Assembly: GCA_046160825.1 (NCBI GenBank)
Contig: JBJXHC010000037.1
Coordinates: forward strand, 4,799 to 68,798
Length of the DNA: 64,000 bases
Reading direction: 5' to 3'
Source: Bacteroidota bacterium
GTDB lineage: Bacteria > Bacteroidota > Ignavibacteria > UBA10030 > UBA6906
A program made the position numbers and the translations under genes. This document shows positions 5,018 through 48,405 of the stretch, piece after piece (within the stretch, counting starts at the first letter, position 1; each line of letters begins with the position of its first letter). A model generated the notes under the pieces. The model worked only from the letters and a program-made list of their open reading frames with translations, did not search any database and had not been told where the DNA came from.

Positions 5018-6312
5018 ATTCGCACATCGTTGTCAATGCAACCAATCTTGGAAGATACATCGGAGGTATCGGTGTCTATGCACTCAATCTTTTGAAGGAA
5101 CTTCCGCAACTTGATAGCGATCATCATTTCATCATCTATATCAATCGAAGTTGCGCCGTTCATGTGAACGAAATCCCGTTCCCGGACAATTGCGAACTCC
5201 GTTGGGTAAGCAGTGTGGTCTCACCCGACCACGGCTTCATGGGGCACTTGCTGAGACTCTTATACTCAAACTATCTGGGTCTCAAACACAGAAGTTCGTT
5301 AGTATTTGCCGCAAGCCAACTAGAAGCGATCCTGTTCCGGCGGAATCAGATCATCATGGTTCACGACATTATTCCCCTCTTGTTCAGAACGCTGCATAAG
5401 AAACAGTACTACTATTTCAAGTACGTCCTGAGTCATGTTCTGCACAAAACACGATGGATCATCACTCCTTCCAACCATACAAAGGAGCTGTTGGTGCAGA
5501 CGTATGGGATTAACGAATCCAAAGTCGGGGTTATTCACAATGGTGTCCGCGACTCGCTATTCGAGAAAGGACAAGGTCGACAAGAAAAGAGCGACGGCAA
5601 TTTCATTCTCTTTAGTGGTAGAATGGTCCCCATGAAGAATCTCGTCGGAGTACTGAAGGCGTTCAGTCTTATTCAGGAGAAGATTTCTCACAGAATCGTT
5701 ATTACGGGTCATGACGGAGGCCGACTTTTGAAGAGAATATCAAAGACCTCCACGGATGGTTACTCGCCTGTAACTGCTCGCGTCGAATTCAAGGGACACG
5801 TCTCGGCAAAGGAAATGGATGACCTGATGAACCACGCGTCGGTTCTTGTCTTCCCTTCGTTTTACGAGGGGTTTGGTTTGCCACCGCTGGAAGGCATGGC
5901 GCATGGCTGTCCCGTTGTTGTCTCCAACGTGTCCAGCCTTCCTGAAGTGTGTGGCGATGCCGCAGAATATGTTGATCCATGCAACGTGCAAAGCATTGCT
6001 GAAGGTATGTACAGAGTTCTCACTAACAGCGCTGTACGAAAACACCTTATAGAAAAGGGGCTTGAGCGATCAAAGCTTTTCAGTTGGAAGGACTCTGCAA
6101 GGCAACACCTCAGGTTGTTCGACCAGGCGATTTACTCGAGTGGACCGAAGACCCAGATTCATCGTATTCAATCTGAAGGATTTGCAGAGATTCCCCTTTC
6201 GATTGGCGCACATAGATTCTATCGAATGGAAAGTGGCTCACCGCAACGAGGAATATCCAGGCCCCCTAACATGGACTTTGGATTACCGAAAGCGAAACGA
6301 ATTGTATGTTGA
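5014..6312 (+). CDS. GT4-family glycosyltransferase (GT-B fold)
   Basis: C-terminal GT1/GT4 motif 'FPSFYEGFGLPPLEGMAHGCPVVVSNVSSLPEVCGDAAEYVDP'. ATGA overlap with wzt at 5014-5017. Confidence 0.8.
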   Translation: MNSHIVVNATNLGRYIGGIGVYALNLLKELPQLDSDHHFIIYINRSCAVHVNEIPFPDNCELRWVSSVVSPDHGFMGHLLRLLYSNYLGLKHRSSLVFAASQLEAILFRRNQIIMVHDIIPLLFRTLHKKQYYYFKYVLSHVLHKTRWIITPSNHTKELLVQTYGINESKVGVIHNGVRDSLFEKGQGRQEKSDGNFILFSGRMVPMKNLVGVLKAFSLIQEKISHRIVITGHDGGRLLKRISKTSTDGYSPVTARVEFKGHVSAKEMDDLMNHASVLVFPSFYEGFGLPPLEGMAHGCPVVVSNVSSLPEVCGDAAEYVDPCNVQSIAEGMYRVLTNSAVRKHLIEKGLERSKLFSWKDSARQHLRLFDQAIYSSGPKTQIHRIQSEGFAEIPLSIGAHRFYRMESGSPQRGISRPPNMDFGLPKAKRIVC

Positions 6313-20084: not shown

Positions 20085-20978
20085 TTATTTCGTATCCAGT
20101 ATTAGCGGCAGTCCATCCTTGCCCGCACCGATGATAATTACTTTTGTGTTCGGTGATTGCGCAATCTTCTCCGTTGCTTCAATTCCCTTCCATCGGAGTA
20201 ACTGCTCGCTGATTCCTCGTGCGACAATGTTTTGGAAATCAGAAATACCCTGGGCCTCGATGCGCTTTCGATCGGCCTCCTGTTTTTCCTTCGTGAGAAT
20301 GAACTCCATCCGCTGGCTTTCCTGATCCGCTTTCTGCTTCTGCTCGATTGCTTCGGTGAGTTGAGTTGGCAGTGCGACGTTTCGTATCGGTGTGGTTTCG
20401 ATGATTACGCCGCGATTGCCGACCATTTTCGCAAGCTCTTCCTGAATTGACTGGCCGAGGCGCTCGCGTTCTGTTGAGTACAGTGCGCTGGCCTGAAAGC
20501 TCGCCGCAACAGCACGACTGATGGAGCGAAACTGTGGGACGAGAATAATGTTTTCATAGTCGCCGCCGGCAACCGTCTGGTAGACACGAGCCGCAGAATC
20601 AGGGTTGAGCCTGTAGAGGACACTGATCTCCAATCCGATGGTGAGACCTTCACGCGAGAGCACCTGCATTTGTTCCTTGTGTTCTTTCGTTTGGATCGAG
20701 TACTTGACCACCTTTGCCATGGGATTCACCGGATTAACGCCCGGTGCATACGTGCGGGTCTCTACGACACCCAGAAAGTCGGCTATACCAACATGGCCAG
20801 CCGGGACAATAGTAAACGCTTGTGTCGCGGCAATTGCAGCAAAGAGAACAGCAAGTGCCCCCGCCAGCAGACTTGAAGAGCGGAACATTGGATTCCGCTC
20901 CACCTGGAATTTCTTCCGGGCGGCATTCCAGGCAACGATGCTGATGAGGGCCGCTATGAGACTGAGAATGAATACCAT
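20085..20978 (-). CDS. SPFH/band-7 (prohibitin/HflK-like) membrane protein
   Basis: N-terminal TM 'MVFILSLIAALISIVAWNAA'. SPFH core 'QVLSREGLTIGLEISVLYRLNPDSAARVYQTVAGGDYENIIL'. C-terminal coiled-coil rich in E/K/Q. Confidence 0.8.
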   Translation of the reverse strand: MVFILSLIAALISIVAWNAARKKFQVERNPMFRSSSLLAGALAVLFAAIAATQAFTIVPAGHVGIADFLGVVETRTYAPGVNPVNPMAKVVKYSIQTKEHKEQMQVLSREGLTIGLEISVLYRLNPDSAARVYQTVAGGDYENIILVPQFRSISRAVAASFQASALYSTERERLGQSIQEELAKMVGNRGVIIETTPIRNVALPTQLTEAIEQKQKADQESQRMEFILTKEKQEADRKRIEAQGISDFQNIVARGISEQLLRWKGIEATEKIAQSPNTKVIIIGAGKDGLPLILDTK

Positions 20979-21018
20979 GACGTTCTCCTATATGTTAAAT
21001 GATGTTGAAAACTATGAG

Positions 21019-22260
21019 TCAATTCGCGCCTACCGATGCTCGCTCAGTATTCTTTCCGCGGTCGGTATCCGCAACAAGAAGCAAACAATTTCCGATTGCC
21101 CGTTCGCCGGTGGGGTCCGATGGTGAATTCACCACCCGTCCATTGATGACGAGCGTTGTCGATCCTCCGCCGTCGAGGTTGAGTCCTTGATAAATGCCGA
21201 GACGTATCATCAAATCAGCGAACTCGGAAAGAGACATCCCGACAGTTCGTTGCTGCCTGCCGTCAACGGTGATGAAATAGAGCGTGGTGCTATCACTTGA
21301 GAATCCCACCCCGGATCGGGGGTGTCGCTTTGAGAATATCGTTGCGCGCGGATCCTCTGGAAAATCCGATTGCTTGAACACATTCTTTCCATTCCGCACG
21401 ATTCTCGGCCAACCACCGACGAGCTCCTTCAATGGTCCGGAGTCCGGTAGCATAGCAAGAACAATGCGGAGCGAGTCTTCGTTCGATTGTGTGGAAAGTA
21501 TTTCACCGCCGTATTCGGTCAATACGAGTCCACCCTCCGGGATGATACCGCCTTCGGGCGAGATCGAATTTTCTATTGATGTGCAGATCATCGTGTCACC
21601 GGCAGTGCGCGCAATTCGCACTGTAAGCTCACTCGTTTTTGTCAGACCATCAGGGACGGGCGTTTGTTTGCCAAAGTATCGGTTGTACAGCACAACGCCC
21701 CCGCGTCGTGGAATAATATTCACCCCCGCCAGTGCAATGGACAATCCGGCACGGCCAAGCACACTTCCATCAAACATGAATTGCTCGATTAGTGGTCGGC
21801 CATCATGTGTGACGGCAAATTGGGAATTGGGGATATCGACAAATTCCGGTCGATGTCCGCGTGATCGGAATGCTTTTACAAATGATCCGCCAACAATGTG
21901 GTTGTTCTGAGCTTCCCCCGTACCCGGATTGAAATAATCACCATTGATGGCTACAGCGACATACTGGTCTGCATTACTCTTACGGATGGCGATAGAGCTT
22001 ACGGTTTCTCTGCCGAACAGTCGATCCTCAGCACACGCGCTCTCAATCCGTAATTCCGGATGCCCCACATTGATCTCGACGACATGAATACTCCACGGCC
22101 CATCACGGTCAACAATAGTGCGATGAATAACCCCTGGCCGGATGACTTCAACACTGCTGCCACCGCGCGCAGGAAGCGGCTGTGTGGCAAGCCATCCCGC
22201 CCAGCAGAAGCAAAGGATAACGAGCAGTGAGTGTATTATACGATTGAGGGCTCGAGTCAT
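21019..22260 (-). CDS. Secreted phosphodiester glycosidase family protein (DUF2233/NAGPA-like)
   Basis: Signal peptide. 'VAINGDYFNPGTGEAQNNHIVGGSF' and 'GLNLDGGGSTTLVINGRVVNSPSDP' are typical of the phosphodiester glycosidase domain. Confidence 0.7.
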   Translation of the reverse strand: MTRALNRIIHSLLVILCFCWAGWLATQPLPARGGSSVEVIRPGVIHRTIVDRDGPWSIHVVEINVGHPELRIESACAEDRLFGRETVSSIAIRKSNADQYVAVAINGDYFNPGTGEAQNNHIVGGSFVKAFRSRGHRPEFVDIPNSQFAVTHDGRPLIEQFMFDGSVLGRAGLSIALAGVNIIPRRGGVVLYNRYFGKQTPVPDGLTKTSELTVRIARTAGDTMICTSIENSISPEGGIIPEGGLVLTEYGGEILSTQSNEDSLRIVLAMLPDSGPLKELVGGWPRIVRNGKNVFKQSDFPEDPRATIFSKRHPRSGVGFSSDSTTLYFITVDGRQQRTVGMSLSEFADLMIRLGIYQGLNLDGGGSTTLVINGRVVNSPSDPTGERAIGNCLLLVADTDRGKNTERASVGAN

Positions 22261-22362
22261 GCGGACAACATAATATCAGATAATAACTTAGCCAAGACGG
22301 CAGGGAAAAGCAAGTGTTCAGCCGTACCCCTGCCCGGTCTTTGTATCACGACAGAAAGACAA

Positions 22363-22385
22363 AACCCGGATGAGTTGTCCGGGTT
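22363..22385 (-). terminator. Rho-independent terminator for the M2 peptidase gene
   Basis: Perfect 8-bp stem AACCCGGA/TCCGGGTT with a 7-nt loop. On the minus strand it is followed by TTTTGTCTTTCTG. Lies 26 nt downstream of the stop at 22411-22413. Confidence 0.6.
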
Positions 22386-22410
22386 TGATGAGCAGCGATC
22401 CGGCAAGAGA

Positions 22411-23580
22411 TTACAGTTCCGTCAACGTATGCGTGCGTCCCTTGTTTGCCGTTTTCAAATATTCCATCAATGGTTGATAATACTCGAGCATTGCTCGAGC
22501 ACTGAGGCCTTCTCCCGTCTTTTCCTTCAGCACAACTCTCCAGTCTCTGCTCGCACCCGGACGCATGATGCTTTGCAGAAACGCTCCGACCTCTTTGTTG
22601 CCGGAGTAGTTGCAGTTGTTGGGATCCTGCTTGAGAATATTCTTTGCGATATGGCCGTGGAGTTGAAACTTCAGTATGCATGAAAGCGCGTAGTCATAGT
22701 ATTGTGCCGCATCGTCGTTGACGTATGTTTTGGTCGCGGCATCGCAGTACTCCACGCCCCGTGCCGTCGGCGGAACGACCCCCTGATACTTTTGCACGTA
22801 TTCCCACCAGCGCGCGTTGTATTGATCTTTCGGGAGGTTCTGTTCATACAAGTCGTGCTCGAAATGCGACATCGTACCGGTCGAGAAGGGGATGAAGACA
22901 AGGGAACGGCTGGAGAGCGCGTCGTTCAACAACCATTGCACCTGATCGATCTTCACGTCAGTTGAGAGCAAGCCAAGCTCCTCAAGGTATGCGCGCTGGG
23001 ACGAAGCAAGGTCCATCAGATCACCCATGCCCTCGTGGTAACTCCGGTTCGCTCCTTCACGAAGGACCAGCGGGACATCGGGCATCGAGTATTCGATGTA
23101 GTAATAAATATGACCCAGCTCGTGATGCGTTGTGCCGAACCAATCAGCGTTCGGGATAACACTCATCAGCGAACGGTAATCATCCTGTAGATCCAGATGC
23201 CAGGCAGATGCATAATTATTTTTCTTGCGGGGAGTGCCCACTGGAACCGGGTAAAGGTCCGATTTCTCCCAGAAATTCTGCTTCATGGCAGGAAAGCCGA
23301 TGCTCACATAGAACTTCTCGGCCTGTTGCACGATCCACTCCGCCGATTTGTCTTTGAAGAGTGCATCCAGATCGACCGCCCTGATAATGCCCGGCCAGTT
23401 TTGGCCCCAGCGGTTTGATGTCCAATGTGCCGGAAGCATTTCTGGAACAGGCTGATTGTATCGCTTTGCCAATTCATAGCGAGCCCATGTGTGAAGTTCG
23501 ATACACAGTGGCCGCAGTTCACGCACAAGTTGATCCATCAACGCCATCATCTCCTGTGTCGTCATGCCGTAATCGGCCAC
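22411..23580 (-). CDS. M2-family (angiotensin-converting-enzyme-like) zinc peptidase, N-terminally truncated (catalytic half only)
   Basis: 'TTHHELGHIYYYIEYS' matches the ACE HHEMGHIQY zinc motif. 'EGANRSYHEGMGD' holds the third Zn ligand. The C-terminal 'YNARWWEYVQKYQGVVPP...' aligns to the ACE C-terminus. The ORF is only 389 aa (bacterial and animal M2 peptidases are ~600 aa). Only ~137 bp separate its start from the next gene. Confidence 0.6.
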   Translation of the reverse strand: MADYGMTTQEMMALMDQLVRELRPLCIELHTWARYELAKRYNQPVPEMLPAHWTSNRWGQNWPGIIRAVDLDALFKDKSAEWIVQQAEKFYVSIGFPAMKQNFWEKSDLYPVPVGTPRKKNNYASAWHLDLQDDYRSLMSVIPNADWFGTTHHELGHIYYYIEYSMPDVPLVLREGANRSYHEGMGDLMDLASSQRAYLEELGLLSTDVKIDQVQWLLNDALSSRSLVFIPFSTGTMSHFEHDLYEQNLPKDQYNARWWEYVQKYQGVVPPTARGVEYCDAATKTYVNDDAAQYYDYALSCILKFQLHGHIAKNILKQDPNNCNYSGNKEVGAFLQSIMRPGASRDWRVVLKEKTGEGLSARAMLEYYQPLMEYLKTANKGRTHTLTEL

Positions 23581-23717
23581 CTGGAATAAACTCCTATGTG
23601 AAACGGTTGATTGACAATCGGGATGGAGTTGAAAGCGTGAACATGGTACGGAAGGGGTAAGGGAAATGCAAGAAACCTAAAGGGAGCCCGGTGATGCCGG
23701 GCCCCCAAACAAGAACA

Positions 23718-25103
23718 TTATCCAATCACTTTCCCATACGGTGCAACCTGTTTCTGAATCTTCTTCTTGTCACCCGCAATGACAATCAGCATCTCCTCAT
23801 CACGAATGTACTTTGCAGTCAAGTCGCGCACCTGTTCTGGCGTGACAGAATAAATCGTCTTGACGTAGTCGGTCAGATAACTGTCGGGCAAGCCGTGAAG
23901 TTGCAGGAACGATAACTGGTTGATGATCCCCGCGGCAGACGAATTCTGCAGCACGAACACACCGGCCAGATAATTCTGGATTCCTTTCAGTTCCTCGGCG
24001 GTCGGGGCCTCCTTTTGCAGGCGGTCGATCTCGAAGAATATTTCCTTCAGGGAGGGACCGGTAACATCCGTTGTAACGCTGGCGAACTGCACCCAGTACG
24101 CATCCCGGTAACGCGACGAGATTGAGCTGTTGGGTGAATATGTATACCCCTTGTCTTCACGGATATTGGAAGTGATGCGCGAGCCGAATGATCCACCAAG
24201 AAGCGCGTTGGTCACGGTCAGCGCGCGGTAATCAGGATCGGATGGATTGATTGTCGGCAGACCAATGTACACCGTGGACTGCGGTGCGCCGGGCCGGTCG
24301 ATGAGATGGATTTCCTTCTTCGATAGTGGCTTTGGGATATTGGCCGCAGGTTCCGGTCCATGCTTCCAGGCGCCGAATGCCTTGCGGATCGCATCTTCCA
24401 TCTTTGTAGCATCGAACTTTCCGGCAACATAGACGTGGGTTCGCGCCGCGCCGAAATTACTCTCATAAAATCCGCGCACGTATTGTATTGTGTACGACTC
24501 AAGCATGGTCTCCGTGGGATAGAGTCTGCCATACGGGTGGTCGCCGTACATCAGTGTGCGGAACTTCTCCAGCGCAATTGAGTTCGGATCGGTCTTCTCG
24601 ATGCTGAGTTGACGCATGCGGTCGTTCTTCAGGCGCGCCAGTTCTGATTCCGGGAAGCTGGGATTGCATAGAATATCGGCAATGAGAGCAACCATTTCCG
24701 GCCCGAATTCCGAAAGCACGTCGCCGTCAATATTTGTCTGGTCTGGCCCAACGGCAATGGAAACACTGCCACCGAGTTTAGCCGCGTCTTTAGCAATCTG
24801 CTTTGCGTTGCGGGTCGTTGTTCCTTCCTTCATCAGGTCGCCCATAATGTCAGCGAGCCAGACTTCGTTCGGTGCTTCATGCACGTTGCCTGTATTCACA
24901 ACGGCGCGGATGGCAGCCTTTGGAAGAGTGCCGTATTGGACGAGCACAACAGTCAGCCCGTTATCAAGTGTGAATGTGGATTTTGCCGGGAGCGTAAAGT
25001 CCTTGGGCGTTGAACCTTCCGGCGGCGTTTGCTTCTGGGCGATTGCCGCACCGGCAACAAACAGCGCGAGAACGAGCGTGCCGAGAATGTGTTTAGTTCG
25101 CAT
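23718..25103 (-). CDS. M16-family peptidase, non-catalytic (HxxEH-less) subunit
   Basis: Signal peptide. M16 fold features ('NGLTVVLVQYGTLPKAAIRAVVNTGNVHE') but no HxxEH motif. 11-nt overlap with the upstream catalytic M16 gene. Confidence 0.8.
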   Translation of the reverse strand: MRTKHILGTLVLALFVAGAAIAQKQTPPEGSTPKDFTLPAKSTFTLDNGLTVVLVQYGTLPKAAIRAVVNTGNVHEAPNEVWLADIMGDLMKEGTTTRNAKQIAKDAAKLGGSVSIAVGPDQTNIDGDVLSEFGPEMVALIADILCNPSFPESELARLKNDRMRQLSIEKTDPNSIALEKFRTLMYGDHPYGRLYPTETMLESYTIQYVRGFYESNFGAARTHVYVAGKFDATKMEDAIRKAFGAWKHGPEPAANIPKPLSKKEIHLIDRPGAPQSTVYIGLPTINPSDPDYRALTVTNALLGGSFGSRITSNIREDKGYTYSPNSSISSRYRDAYWVQFASVTTDVTGPSLKEIFFEIDRLQKEAPTAEELKGIQNYLAGVFVLQNSSAAGIINQLSFLQLHGLPDSYLTDYVKTIYSVTPEQVRDLTAKYIRDEEMLIVIAGDKKKIQKQVAPYGKVIG

Positions 25104-26490
25104 ACTTGCGCTCCTCTTTGCTTAAGACCTTGGTTGGATTGACAGTCAGGATCGTCTGGTTTGTCCGGCGAAGATACTCCTGCGCCGTCTTCTGAATTAA
25201 TTCCGGCGTCACCTTGTTGATCATTTCTTCAATGGTGTTAATCCGGGCTGGATCGTCATCGAACAAAGCGAACGACGCGAGCAAGTCGGCACGACCGAAG
25301 CCGAAGGTACTGTTCACCTCGTTATAAAAAGCAGAGCGGAATTTTATCTTCGCACGTTCCAATGCCTCTTTGTCAACAGGTGTGGTCCGAAGCTTTTCAA
25401 TCACTCCTTCCATGACGTTCCTGATCGAGTCGGCGGGAGTGGTGTTATCATGGAAGAGATAGCCCATCCACAACATGGGACCGTTGTAGTTGAACATGTT
25501 GCCCAGTAGGTTGATACCCCCATCGACGGAACTGGAATAGCCCCGCTCCTGAACGAGCGCTTCGCGCAACATGCTGTCGTCTCCCTGTAATAGGAGTTGA
25601 TCGATCACCCCCATTGCAAAATACTCCGGTGTGTTTCGCTCAGGCATGTGATACGCGAAGGAAAGCGCCGGCTGACTTGCAAGTGAATCGTCCTTGCTGA
25701 ATTGTTTCGGCTGTTCCTGGCGCGGCTCACTCAGGTCGGGTTTCTGCGGCTGCTCCACGGATGGAATGGCGGCAAAGTATTTTTCGATTAACTGTTTGGC
25801 GTCTGCCGTTTCAAAATCACCGACGACAACAAGTACGGCATTGTTCGGTGAGTAATATGTTTTGAAGAATGATTGCACGTCTTCGAGTGTCGCAGCATCC
25901 AGGTCGGCAAGGTCGCCGTAGAAATTGTGAGCGTTGTACCAGTTGGTGTTCGCGTACTGTGGCATATCGAGCCACGGGAATCCGCCGTACGGCTGGTTGA
26001 GCACATTCACTTTTACCTCGTTCTTGACAACACCCTGCTGGTTCGTCAGGTTTGCCTGGGTAATGTCCAATCCCTTCATCCGGTCGGCTTCCGCCCAGAG
26101 AATGGTTTCCAGTTTGTGTGCCGGGACGATTTGAAAATAATTGGTAAAGTCGAACCGCGTCGAACCGTTGAGTACGCCGCCGTTCTTCTGGACAAGCTTG
26201 ATGAATTCCATCTTGCCGAGATTATCGGAACCCTGGAACATCATGTGCTCGAACAGGTGCGCAAAACCCGTCCGGTCCTTCGGCTCAATGCGGAAGCCGA
26301 TGTTGTAATAAACGGCAACCACGGCTGTCGGTGCTGTCTTGTCCGGGGAGAGGACAACCTTCAACCCGTTGGACAGTTTGTAGTATTCAACGGGCACTGT
26401 GTAACCCGTCGATTCTCCTTTAGGACTTGAGCAGGACAAGACTGCAAGCGCCAAACACCCAAGAATTGTTGGGAGGATGGGATTCCTCAT
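25093..26490 (-). CDS. M16-family zinc peptidase, catalytic subunit
   Basis: Signal peptide/lipobox ('LAVLSCSSP'). Inverted zinc motif HxxEH in 'GFAHLFEHMMFQGS'. Confidence 0.85.
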   Translation of the reverse strand: MRNPILPTILGCLALAVLSCSSPKGESTGYTVPVEYYKLSNGLKVVLSPDKTAPTAVVAVYYNIGFRIEPKDRTGFAHLFEHMMFQGSDNLGKMEFIKLVQKNGGVLNGSTRFDFTNYFQIVPAHKLETILWAEADRMKGLDITQANLTNQQGVVKNEVKVNVLNQPYGGFPWLDMPQYANTNWYNAHNFYGDLADLDAATLEDVQSFFKTYYSPNNAVLVVVGDFETADAKQLIEKYFAAIPSVEQPQKPDLSEPRQEQPKQFSKDDSLASQPALSFAYHMPERNTPEYFAMGVIDQLLLQGDDSMLREALVQERGYSSSVDGGINLLGNMFNYNGPMLWMGYLFHDNTTPADSIRNVMEGVIEKLRTTPVDKEALERAKIKFRSAFYNEVNSTFGFGRADLLASFALFDDDPARINTIEEMINKVTPELIQKTAQEYLRRTNQTILTVNPTKVLSKEERKYAN

Positions 26491-45732: not shown

Positions 45733-48405
45733 TTGTTTCTCCCCCCAAACTTCTCTATATTTTCCGCAATTCAAACAATACCCAAGAGCGGAATGCCCAT
45801 CCAACGTTCATTAGTTCCTTACCTGCTCGCCTGTTGTTGTGCTGTTGCCCTCCTTTCCTGTAGCAAAGAAATTCCACCCGAGCAAAAGCAAGCCGATAAT
45901 CTTCTCGGCAAAGCGCGCGATGCCTTCGAGCGAAAACAGTATCACGAAGCCCGGCAATTACTCTGGTCGGCAAACACGTTGGATGCGCAACTTGTCCGTG
46001 TCCCCCAGCTTGCGGAAGAATATGAACTGTTGGGACGCATCTATGCGTCGGCCGCGTCGTTTGACAGCGCCATGTTGTTGTATGCGCGTGCCATCGAGCA
46101 ATACAAAGCACTGACAGACAGAAAATCCGCCACAACGCTCACCATCGAAACCGCGCTGCTTCATAGAAAAATGGGAGAAGAGCGCAAGGCTCACACGATG
46201 CTGACCGAGGCGTTGCGTCTTGCGCGATTGTTCAAGGACACGACCGGTATTCGGGATTTGTTGTGGGCTGTTATTCCCACCGCTCGCGCTCTTGATCTGC
46301 CGGAGGAGGAATCGTCTTACATTGGCGAACTTCTCAACGGTGCACTGACGCGCAGCGATCTCGGCGAACAAGCACGGCTTCACCGCGAGTCGGGACTCTC
46401 GATGCTCTACCGTGGCGATGCCGCCCGCGCAGAAGAGAACTTCCTCCGCACACTCACCTTTGCGGAGCAGATGCGCGACTCGCTTCTCGGTATTGAAGCG
46501 CTGTATCGTCTTGCGATAACGTACCAATCAGCCGGGAAAACGAGTCAGGCCCTTGAGACCTACAGCGAAGCCCTACGGCGGGCGGATGTCACACACGGTG
46601 CGAGGCACCTCCGCACCGAAATGCTGATCCGTGTCGGAAATGTTTATCTGGGAACCCACGCCTATGCGGATGCGGCGCGCTTTTATCGGGCGGCACTTTC
46701 CTCTGCGATTGCTGCCGGAGACAAGCTGACCGAAGGCTATTGCTTCGTACAAATCGGTCACAGCGAAGTGCTTGGTGATGGAGGAATAGCCGCGGCAACG
46801 AAAAGCTACCGCGCCGCGCTTGATCTGTTCAACGGTGTTCTTTATCCGCGCGGTGCATCGTATGCATTGCAAAGCCTGGGTTACGCAGCCCGACGCGCAC
46901 GCCAGACTACCGAGGCCTTGGACTATTGCAAGCAGGCCATCGAACAGTATGAATCGGTCTTCTCATCACCTCCTCGTGACGACTTGTACGCAGAGTGCGA
47001 ACAGGCGTTGGCCGACCTCAACAACGAATCGCCATACGATAACGTGATCGAGTTATCGCTGCAGCTTGGCCGCACCGATGAGGGCTTCTGGTACGCCAGC
47101 AGGAAGGCGGGCAATACGATGGCCCGCGCTTTGTGTGCGCTGGACATTCAGGAAAAGGACACGATGGGGTTGGATCGTTATGAGCACACGCGTGCCGTAC
47201 ATGTTGGGTCCGAGAGACAACTTGAATATATCCTCTCCGCCGGTCCGCGTGAACAGGTTCTTCATAAAGACGTCGTTGCGGTGCTTGAAGGCAACATGCG
47301 CCGGATGGATGAAGCATCATCGGACGTTGTGCAACGGAAACAATCACTTGAATCGGCCGTACGGATTGCGGGTTACGGGACAGCCGAAGTTCAGAAACTG
47401 ATACCACCGGGTTCTGCGCTTGTCGTCTATGTGCCGACCCGCCAGACGTTGCACGAGTTTGTCATAACATCATCACGTGTTTCAGCGCAGGTTGCGGCAG
47501 TGGAGAACACAGCGCTCCGGTCAATGGCGAAGGAATTCATTTCATTGTTGCGGCAGCAGGTTTCTTTTGAAGACTCGATGGAGGCCCAGCAACGTGCCAT
47601 CAATCGTCGTAGTGAAGAATTGAATAACAAATTGTACGGACTGCTCGTTCGTCCTGTTGAGCAGGATATCGGGTCGGCATCGAAACTTGTCGTGTTACTG
47701 CCGGATGTTCTGGCGGATGTTCCTGTGCACGCGCTACGCCGCGGCAGATCGCGGTCGCTCGCCACCTACGTTGCAGAACGATTCACCGTCAGTTATCTCC
47801 CTTCGTTGGGTGCGCTTGCATTACAGGGAACGGCTCTTCGGACGGAGCGACAGGTCGTTGGACTGGGCCACCCGGGAAATGCTTCGTGGGATGTGGAGTA
47901 TGAACTCCGCGATATCAGGGCGTTTTACAAGGACGCCCGACTGTATTTCGGAGCCCAGGCAACACTTCCAACATTGCGTGGTGAGAAAGCGGATGTTATC
48001 CACGTGGCACTGCAAACTGTGTTCAGCCGGACGTCTCCCGAGAATTCCTTCGTATACTTTTCCGATGGTCAATCGGGCACAACAACAAAGCGGGCACTCT
48101 GGGGAGAAATGTACTCGATCCCCGCTGTCGGTGCATTGTTGTTTTCCGATTTGGGAGACGATACAGAGATGCACCGCACCTCGCTTGTGCAAACCCTACT
48201 GATGAGCGGGTCCGGGAAAGTCGTGCTGAACTCATTCGTGCCATTGAGGAAATGCAAAAAGTTCTTCGGCGAGATATTCTATACATCGTTGCTTGGTGGT
48301 GCGGATGTGGATGGGGCGATGCGTGCAGTACAACTTGCGATGATCAAATCCCCGGAATACTCCGCCACCCACATGTGGGCGCCGTTCTTCCTCTGGGGAA
48401 AATAA
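45733..48405 (+). CDS. TPR-repeat lipoprotein with C-terminal CHAT (caspase-HetF-like) domain
   Basis: Probable lipobox start 'MPIQRSLVPYLLACCCAVALLSCSKE' at 45793. TPR repeats through ~res 450. C-terminal ~300 aa CHAT-like, ending with the family-typical 'HMWAPFFLWGK'. His motif 'DVIHVALQT'. I could not find the usual LSAC-type catalytic Cys. Confidence 0.7.
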   Translation: MFLPPNFSIFSAIQTIPKSGMPIQRSLVPYLLACCCAVALLSCSKEIPPEQKQADNLLGKARDAFERKQYHEARQLLWSANTLDAQLVRVPQLAEEYELLGRIYASAASFDSAMLLYARAIEQYKALTDRKSATTLTIETALLHRKMGEERKAHTMLTEALRLARLFKDTTGIRDLLWAVIPTARALDLPEEESSYIGELLNGALTRSDLGEQARLHRESGLSMLYRGDAARAEENFLRTLTFAEQMRDSLLGIEALYRLAITYQSAGKTSQALETYSEALRRADVTHGARHLRTEMLIRVGNVYLGTHAYADAARFYRAALSSAIAAGDKLTEGYCFVQIGHSEVLGDGGIAAATKSYRAALDLFNGVLYPRGASYALQSLGYAARRARQTTEALDYCKQAIEQYESVFSSPPRDDLYAECEQALADLNNESPYDNVIELSLQLGRTDEGFWYASRKAGNTMARALCALDIQEKDTMGLDRYEHTRAVHVGSERQLEYILSAGPREQVLHKDVVAVLEGNMRRMDEASSDVVQRKQSLESAVRIAGYGTAEVQKLIPPGSALVVYVPTRQTLHEFVITSSRVSAQVAAVENTALRSMAKEFISLLRQQVSFEDSMEAQQRAINRRSEELNNKLYGLLVRPVEQDIGSASKLVVLLPDVLADVPVHALRRGRSRSLATYVAERFTVSYLPSLGALALQGTALRTERQVVGLGHPGNASWDVEYELRDIRAFYKDARLYFGAQATLPTLRGEKADVIHVALQTVFSRTSPENSFVYFSDGQSGTTTKRALWGEMYSIPAVGALLFSDLGDDTEMHRTSLVQTLLMSGSGKVVLNSFVPLRKCKKFFGEIFYTSLLGGADVDGAMRAVQLAMIKSPEYSATHMWAPFFLWGK

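Follow-up and report, generated by a model that had tools for sequence, protein, structure and literature searches.

XcACE of Xanthomonas is the characterised bacterial member of the M2 peptidase family (mentioned in PMC3235092). In human ACE2, Sub I comprises residues 19-102, 290-397 and 417-430, while Sub II comprises residues 103-289, 398-416 and 431-615 (PMC8691454); in ACE, His353 and His513 are among the active-site contact residues (PMC11579378). Full-length M2 homologues without peptidase activity are also known, such as ACN-1 of Caenorhabditis elegans, which is listed as a "non-peptidase ACE". The bacterial proteins most similar to the sequence described here are single-domain M2 lipoproteins of about 600 amino acids from metagenome-assembled genomes (MAGs) labelled Chitinophagales, Ignavibacteria, KSB1 and Calditrichota, among them the protein P0002.

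The locus was analysed within the window, that is, the whole 64-kb stretch of DNA. Its M2 open reading frame (ORF) shares with the bacterial lipoproteins the HEXXH...E zinc site and the C-terminal two-thirds of the fold, but compared with P0002-type orthologues it lacks residues 1-208 and carries Tyr at both substrate-binding His positions. The ORF product also aligns to residues 222-601 of human ACE2 and to both domains of somatic ACE (sACE), with E values from about 1e-104 to 1e-53, and keeps the equivalents of ACE His383, Glu384, His387, Glu411, Lys511, Tyr520 and Tyr523; it differs from the human proteins in lacking the equivalent of ACE2 residues 19 to about 211, in the replacement of His353 and His513 by Tyr, and in having no signal peptide. 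Its altered active-site residues are a point in common with M2 homologues such as ACN-1, whereas the inactive homologues are, by description, full-length and evolutionarily retained, and the present sequence is a one-off truncation with intact zinc ligands. Ordinary genes commonly leave truncated remnants, a well-understood outcome, and the ORF is very probably one of these: a young, non-functional M2 remnant (pseudogene) left by a deletion of about 620 bp.

The ORF (22411..23580, minus strand) is the longest possible reading of its own frame and comprises 389 codons with a GTG start. Its product matched the Pfam family PF01401 (Peptidase_M2) with 268 bits (cut-off 23; E = 2e-79), while an NCBIfam profile search of the same protein gave no family match. 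Residues 8-384 correspond to positions 191-577 of the 581 positions of the Pfam model, and thus the first ~190 positions are absent and the match extends almost to the end of the model, as the initial annotation had proposed in describing an ORF that holds only the C-terminal part of an M2 peptidase with its conserved C-terminus. Full-length P0002 covers model positions 4-573, and its residues 209-597 are the counterpart of the 389 residues. The start had been placed at about residue 230 of an ACE domain, which is close to the measured position, although the latter is residue 209 of the orthologues, or about 219 in testis ACE (tACE) numbering. The claim that the zinc site is retained was confirmed: the motif HHELGH (23113..23127, minus strand; residues 152-156) is intact, as is Glu183 in HEGMGD (23032..23034, minus strand), the third zinc ligand and equivalent of tACE Glu411, and the two segments align with HHEMGH and HEAIGD of human ACE, giving the gluzincin arrangement of HEXXH plus a downstream Glu. 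Alignment to sACE showed that the equivalents of the cleft residues Gln281, Lys511, Tyr520 and Tyr523 of tACE are also kept. The ORF does not encode a complete M2 catalytic domain, which spans about 580-600 residues with both subdomains around the cleft; three features of a working member are missing, as the domain is incomplete, the conserved pair of His is gone and there is no export signal of the kind that its orthologous group carries. The remnant has no internal stop or frameshift over its 389 codons. A public record of the protein already exists, NCBI MFN0157391.1 ("MAG: M2 family metallopeptidase [Bacteroidota bacterium]"), encoded on a 74-kb contig; it forms a single-member cluster seen on one contig, and the exact 389-aa protein had no record in the contig index searched.

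Genomic context analysis revealed that the ORF occupies a conserved position. Upstream are two overlapping and intact M16 peptidase genes (23718..26490, minus strand; 465 and 461 aa), and downstream are intact genes for a NAGPA-family protein (413 aa) and a Band 7/SPFH protein (297 aa; 20085..22260, minus strand), all with the order found in relatives. The order M16-M16-M2-NAGPA(-Band7) is common to the window and three relatives (L001, L002 and L006), with Band7 following NAGPA in those relatives where the sequence reaches so far. In the relatives, the M16 genes encode about 465 aa and then 461 aa, and the M2 gene encodes a full-length lipoprotein of 597-605 aa; in the window, the flanking genes are normal in length and M2 alone is short. 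The remnant thus lies where the P0002-like group is found, after the M16 pair and before NAGPA and Band7. Its nearest relative is P0002 of L001 (87% protein and 80% nucleotide identity), followed by P0003 of L002 (82% protein identity). The cluster as a whole (20085..26490, minus strand) is kept in the window and in these three closest relatives, while in more distant genomes with an orthologous M2 gene the M16 pair was not found upstream of it. An 11-bp overlap between the two M16 genes occurs in the window (25093..25103, minus strand), in L001 (4484..4494) and in L002 (4518..4528), as might be expected if a two-subunit M16 peptidase were translationally coupled.

The short length has no parallel among close homologues. 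In the best 120 matches, which share 68-87% identity across the whole query, all of the 111 complete proteins have 587-622 aa, and so short orthologues are not common. Seven other short entries (377-480 aa) were each found on contigs of 1.3-2.1 kb and are cut by the contig end; short M2 proteins were accordingly rejected as a natural class, the other short homologues all being on contigs of 2.1 kb or less. Each of the 30 complete loci taken from species-representative genomes has 209 or more in-frame codons before the Val that corresponds to the start in the window; the genomes are labelled Chitinophagales, Ignavibacteria, KSB1, Caldithrix and Planctomycetota. The remnant is shorter than all of its orthologues, it occupies their syntenic position, and no nearby sequence encodes what is missing, as expected of a truncated remnant.

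The spacer between the ORF and the upstream M16 gene, whose stop codon is at 23720..23718, is 137 bp long (23581..23717). Most of it (23587..23717, minus strand) is the retained ancestral M16-M2 intergenic region, which is 63% identical to that of L001, compared with 48% identity at the four-fold degenerate sites of the gene. In the DNA alignment, the homology between the window and the intergenic region of L001 continues as far as GGAGTTTA, in the Shine-Dalgarno region 8 nt before the L001 ATG. The alignment then has a clean gap of 622 bp relative to L001 (604 bp relative to L002), and homology picks up again at TTCCAG-GTG-GCC-GAT, which represents codons 207-211 (Phe/Leu-Gln-Val-Ala-Asp) of the orthologues. 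The Phe-Gln codons TTC CAG (23581..23586, minus strand), homologous to orthologue codons 207-208, are now part of the untranslated leader, and the GTG "start" corresponds to the codon for Val209, an internal and conserved residue of the orthologues. The junction falls between 23587 and 23586, with an uncertainty of about 3 nt owing to the microhomology TTTAAT/TTTGAT, in which about 5 of 6 bases are shared by the two ancestral sides, and it contains no inserted or foreign DNA. In agreement, the tblastn match begins at orthologue residue 207, at window position 23586. From these features, the junction would be a simple deletion that arose by slippage or illegitimate recombination.

The removed part is substantial and conserved. 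The orthologues begin with lipoprotein signals with the lipoboxes LTSC, VLSC, ALSC and LSSC, and the lipobox Cys (C17) is near-invariant among them, whereas the window ORF starts at residue 209 and has no signal. Near-invariant columns (C17, W48, N51-I54 and others) are numerous within the N-terminal 208 residues, and this region is therefore under constraint in relatives, as judged from the alignment. An AlphaFold model of P0002 (33 sequences, mean pLDDT 88, pTM 0.89) contains confident helices at residues 21-52, 56-73, 76-86, 94-109, 115-133, 151-160, 164-175 and 177-198, all of which are deleted here along with the beta-hairpin at 137-149; residue 209, where the ORF now begins, lies within the helix at 204-210. 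In the same model, the only segment with pLDDT below 50 is residues 330-335, the N-H-A-S-A-W strand with the His353 equivalent. By alignment (window residue 11 = ACE2 residue 222), the cut lies at about ACE2 residue 212, and thus the deletion removed the whole Sub I segment 19-102 and more than half of the Sub II segment 103-289. The missing part had been equated with the lid subdomain, which proved incorrect: since segments of both subdomains are gone, the change is not the loss of a separable lid.

Two further changes affect the active site. The codon TAT for Tyr123 (23212..23214, minus strand) and the codon TAC for Tyr286 (22723..22725, minus strand) each stand in place of an invariant His (CAY). 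In the alignment to human ACE these positions fall on the His of HASAW and the His of K-F-H, and from the sACE/tACE numbering offset we take them to be tACE His353, in the HASAW strand, and His513, in the K-x-H motif. Both His are invariant in 111 of 111 close homologues and are encoded by CAY in 32 of 32 and 31 of 31 loci, respectively, including relatives at 54-59% identity. The changes H123Y and H286Y each required one CAY-to-TAY (C-to-T) transition. The other 111 sequences share 99 invariant columns, and leaving the start codon aside, the window deviates at three of these (H123Y, A234T and H286Y); when the other sequences were assessed at the same columns, 88 of 111 deviated at none and only two reached three. 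A234T was downgraded as a violation, as Thr occurs at this position in more distant relatives. The two Tyr residues replace two His that touch the same part of the substrate in ACE. The pair may be the product of chance decay, of an inactivation that preceded the deletion, or of selection against an active fragment in the wrong compartment.

When 110 outgroups were used to polarise the sites at which the window and its sister, P0002, differ, 31 changes were assigned to the window and 19 to the sister; in columns that are at least 80% conserved the numbers were 12 and 3, and residues never seen in the outgroups numbered 10 and 2, respectively. In a cluster-wide comparison with two outgroups, available for every gene, the M16 genes showed the opposite trend (13 vs. 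28) to M2 (15 vs. 11; Fisher p = 0.045), but significance of the M2 contrast was lost when the fast-evolving NAGPA gene (23 vs. 14) was added to the controls. The rate evidence is thus only suggestive of relaxed constraint. Pairwise dN/dS against L001 was ~0.05, a value that mostly reflects history before the deletion because dS is saturated, and the three-point dN branch length equalled that of the sister; with dS saturated against the nearest relative, dN/dS was uninformative for dating the deletion. In simulations, the probability that 10-15 random substitutions would leave the frame free of premature stops was 50-63%, and so the intact frame is compatible with a young pseudogene.

The competing explanation that survives best, though an unlikely one, is an assembly or binning artefact or a minority allele, in which the organism normally has a full-length M2 gene and the contig represents a deletion variant or a mis-join. 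The source is a MAG, with the protein known from its single contig, and neither the junction nor its adjoining sequence had an exact match in the other public genome and metagenome contigs scanned. The wild-type allele likewise had no exact match in the public genome and metagenome contigs scanned. The microhomology at the junction, however, is far shorter than the k-mers behind repeat-collapse mis-joins, and such a repeat would be too short for collapse during k-mer assembly. In addition, both flanks are collinear with the orthologous loci, so that the contig is not a chimera of unrelated DNA, and a mis-join would not yield two His-to-Tyr substitutions together with an excess of changes at conserved sites, a pattern that fits an unconstrained copy.

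The upstream M16 gene had been described as terminator-less, but it is followed by a terminator-like hairpin (23682..23706, minus strand) with a stem of 10 pairs, of which 9 are G-C, and a T-rich tail; its folding energy is -23 kcal/mol (z = -4.0). L001 has an equivalent hairpin at 5876..5899, also between the second M16 gene and M2, with compensating differences in the stem (CCCGG/CCGGG vs. CCCGA/TCGGG), and the element may thus be a conserved terminator or attenuator that parts the M16 pair from M2. A terminator-like hairpin with a T-run also follows the remnant (22362..22386, minus strand), in line with the terminator originally assigned to the ORF. A sigma-70 consensus scan of the spacer on the gene's strand found no promoter, and the spacer blocks conserved with L001, CTTGCATTTCCC and CGTACCAT-TTCAC, are thus only candidate regulatory sequence. 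The Shine-Dalgarno-like AGGAG (23595..23591) is now 10 nt before the GTG; a Shine-Dalgarno-like 4-mer precedes ~31% of the long ORFs in the window, compared with a background of 12%. A fragment without a signal may therefore still be made from the GTG, while any such product would probably be inactive, judging from the absent export signal, the missing third of the fold and the two His-to-Tyr changes. The GTG itself was rejected as a sign of selection for translation, as 9 of 30 relatives have GTG at this Val.

A functional truncated protein translated from this GTG with the retained ribosome-binding site, either a minimal M2 enzyme or a cytoplasmic fragment that is non-catalytic or re-purposed for peptide binding, is very improbable. 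The intact frame, the kept zinc ligands and equivalents of Lys511, Tyr520 and Tyr523, the placement of AGGAG and the retained and conserved intergenic region would all agree with it, as would the precedent of ACN-1; moreover, the two His act together on one substrate region, and their joint change to Tyr could in principle be coordinated. Against this, the more than 110 close homologues and the 30 genomes offer no second example, the cut falls within a helix and removes eight confidently modelled helices of both subdomains, loss of the lipoprotein signal would leave the product in the wrong compartment, the frequency of GTG in relatives gives no sign of start-codon selection, and lineage-specific changes are enriched at conserved sites. 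The naturally minimal enzyme without a lid, offered by the initial annotation as one of two readings, fails because complete homologues are all full-length; no short homologue was found on a long contig, and the mid-helix cut and lost export signal also do not support it. A more specific form of the idea is equally doubtful, namely that the retained promoter region and AGGAG drive translation of a signal-less, cytoplasmic C-terminal two-thirds of the protein, with the paired His-to-Tyr changes disarming a mislocalised protease or marking a new non-catalytic role in peptide or metal binding.

The missing N-terminus was also sought in the window. Searches by tblastn with four full-length orthologues, a check recommended at the outset, matched only residues 207 onward at the locus, and the N-terminal 206 residues were not found in the whole 64 kb. 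The sole weak match to an M2 N-terminus (45799..45978; E = 0.001) was rejected as the missing segment, since it is the signal-peptide end of a TPR/CHAT protein. This protein (45733..48405, plus strand; 890 aa) combines a lipoprotein-like signal at its N-terminus with TPR repeats and, at the C-terminus, a CHAT (caspase-like) domain. As had been argued from its length, the 137-bp spacer cannot encode the N-terminal part: three-frame translation gave no M2 similarity, and the frame of the ORF contains a stop ahead of the GTG. A split or frameshifted gene, with its N-terminal part in an adjacent frame or in a separate ORF nearby, is refuted for the 64-kb window and can be dismissed as extremely unlikely, given that the spacer aligns to the orthologous intergenic region and that nothing apart from the weak match at 45.8 kb spoke in its favour.

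The first of the two original readings, a 5'-deleted pseudogene remnant, is supported by the synteny, the clean 622-bp gap, the absence of the N-terminus from the window and the loss of both His. On this account of a young and decaying gene, the ancestor would have been a lipoprotein M2 peptidyl-dipeptidase gene of ~600 codons in the M16-M16-M2-NAGPA-Band7 cluster, and one deletion of ~620 bp would have begun immediately past the ribosome-binding site and ended at codon 207. This single event would have taken away the start codon together with the lipoprotein signal peptide, a beta-hairpin and eight helices, and the leftover 389-codon frame would open by chance at the GTG Val codon, 10 nt past the old AGGAG. 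The resulting fragment would not be exportable, would lack parts of both cleft-forming subdomains and would have Tyr at both substrate-binding His positions, while the remnant would not yet have acquired stops or frameshifts. The truncation, the synteny, the junction, the missing signal peptide and both His-to-Tyr changes are direct observations; we infer the loss of activity, the recency of the deletion and its mechanism by slippage or illegitimate recombination.

If the fragment were functional, the M2 fold would tolerate the loss of a third of its helices, and nothing here points in that direction. The deletion appears by chance to have rebuilt a plausible start from the old ribosome-binding site and an internal GTG, so that a dead gene looks complete to gene callers. 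MFN0157391.1 is annotated as if it were a complete peptidase, and its sequence indicates a 5'-truncated remnant that is probably inactive; a pseudogene or partial flag is warranted when the peptide-degrading capacity of this MAG is inferred.
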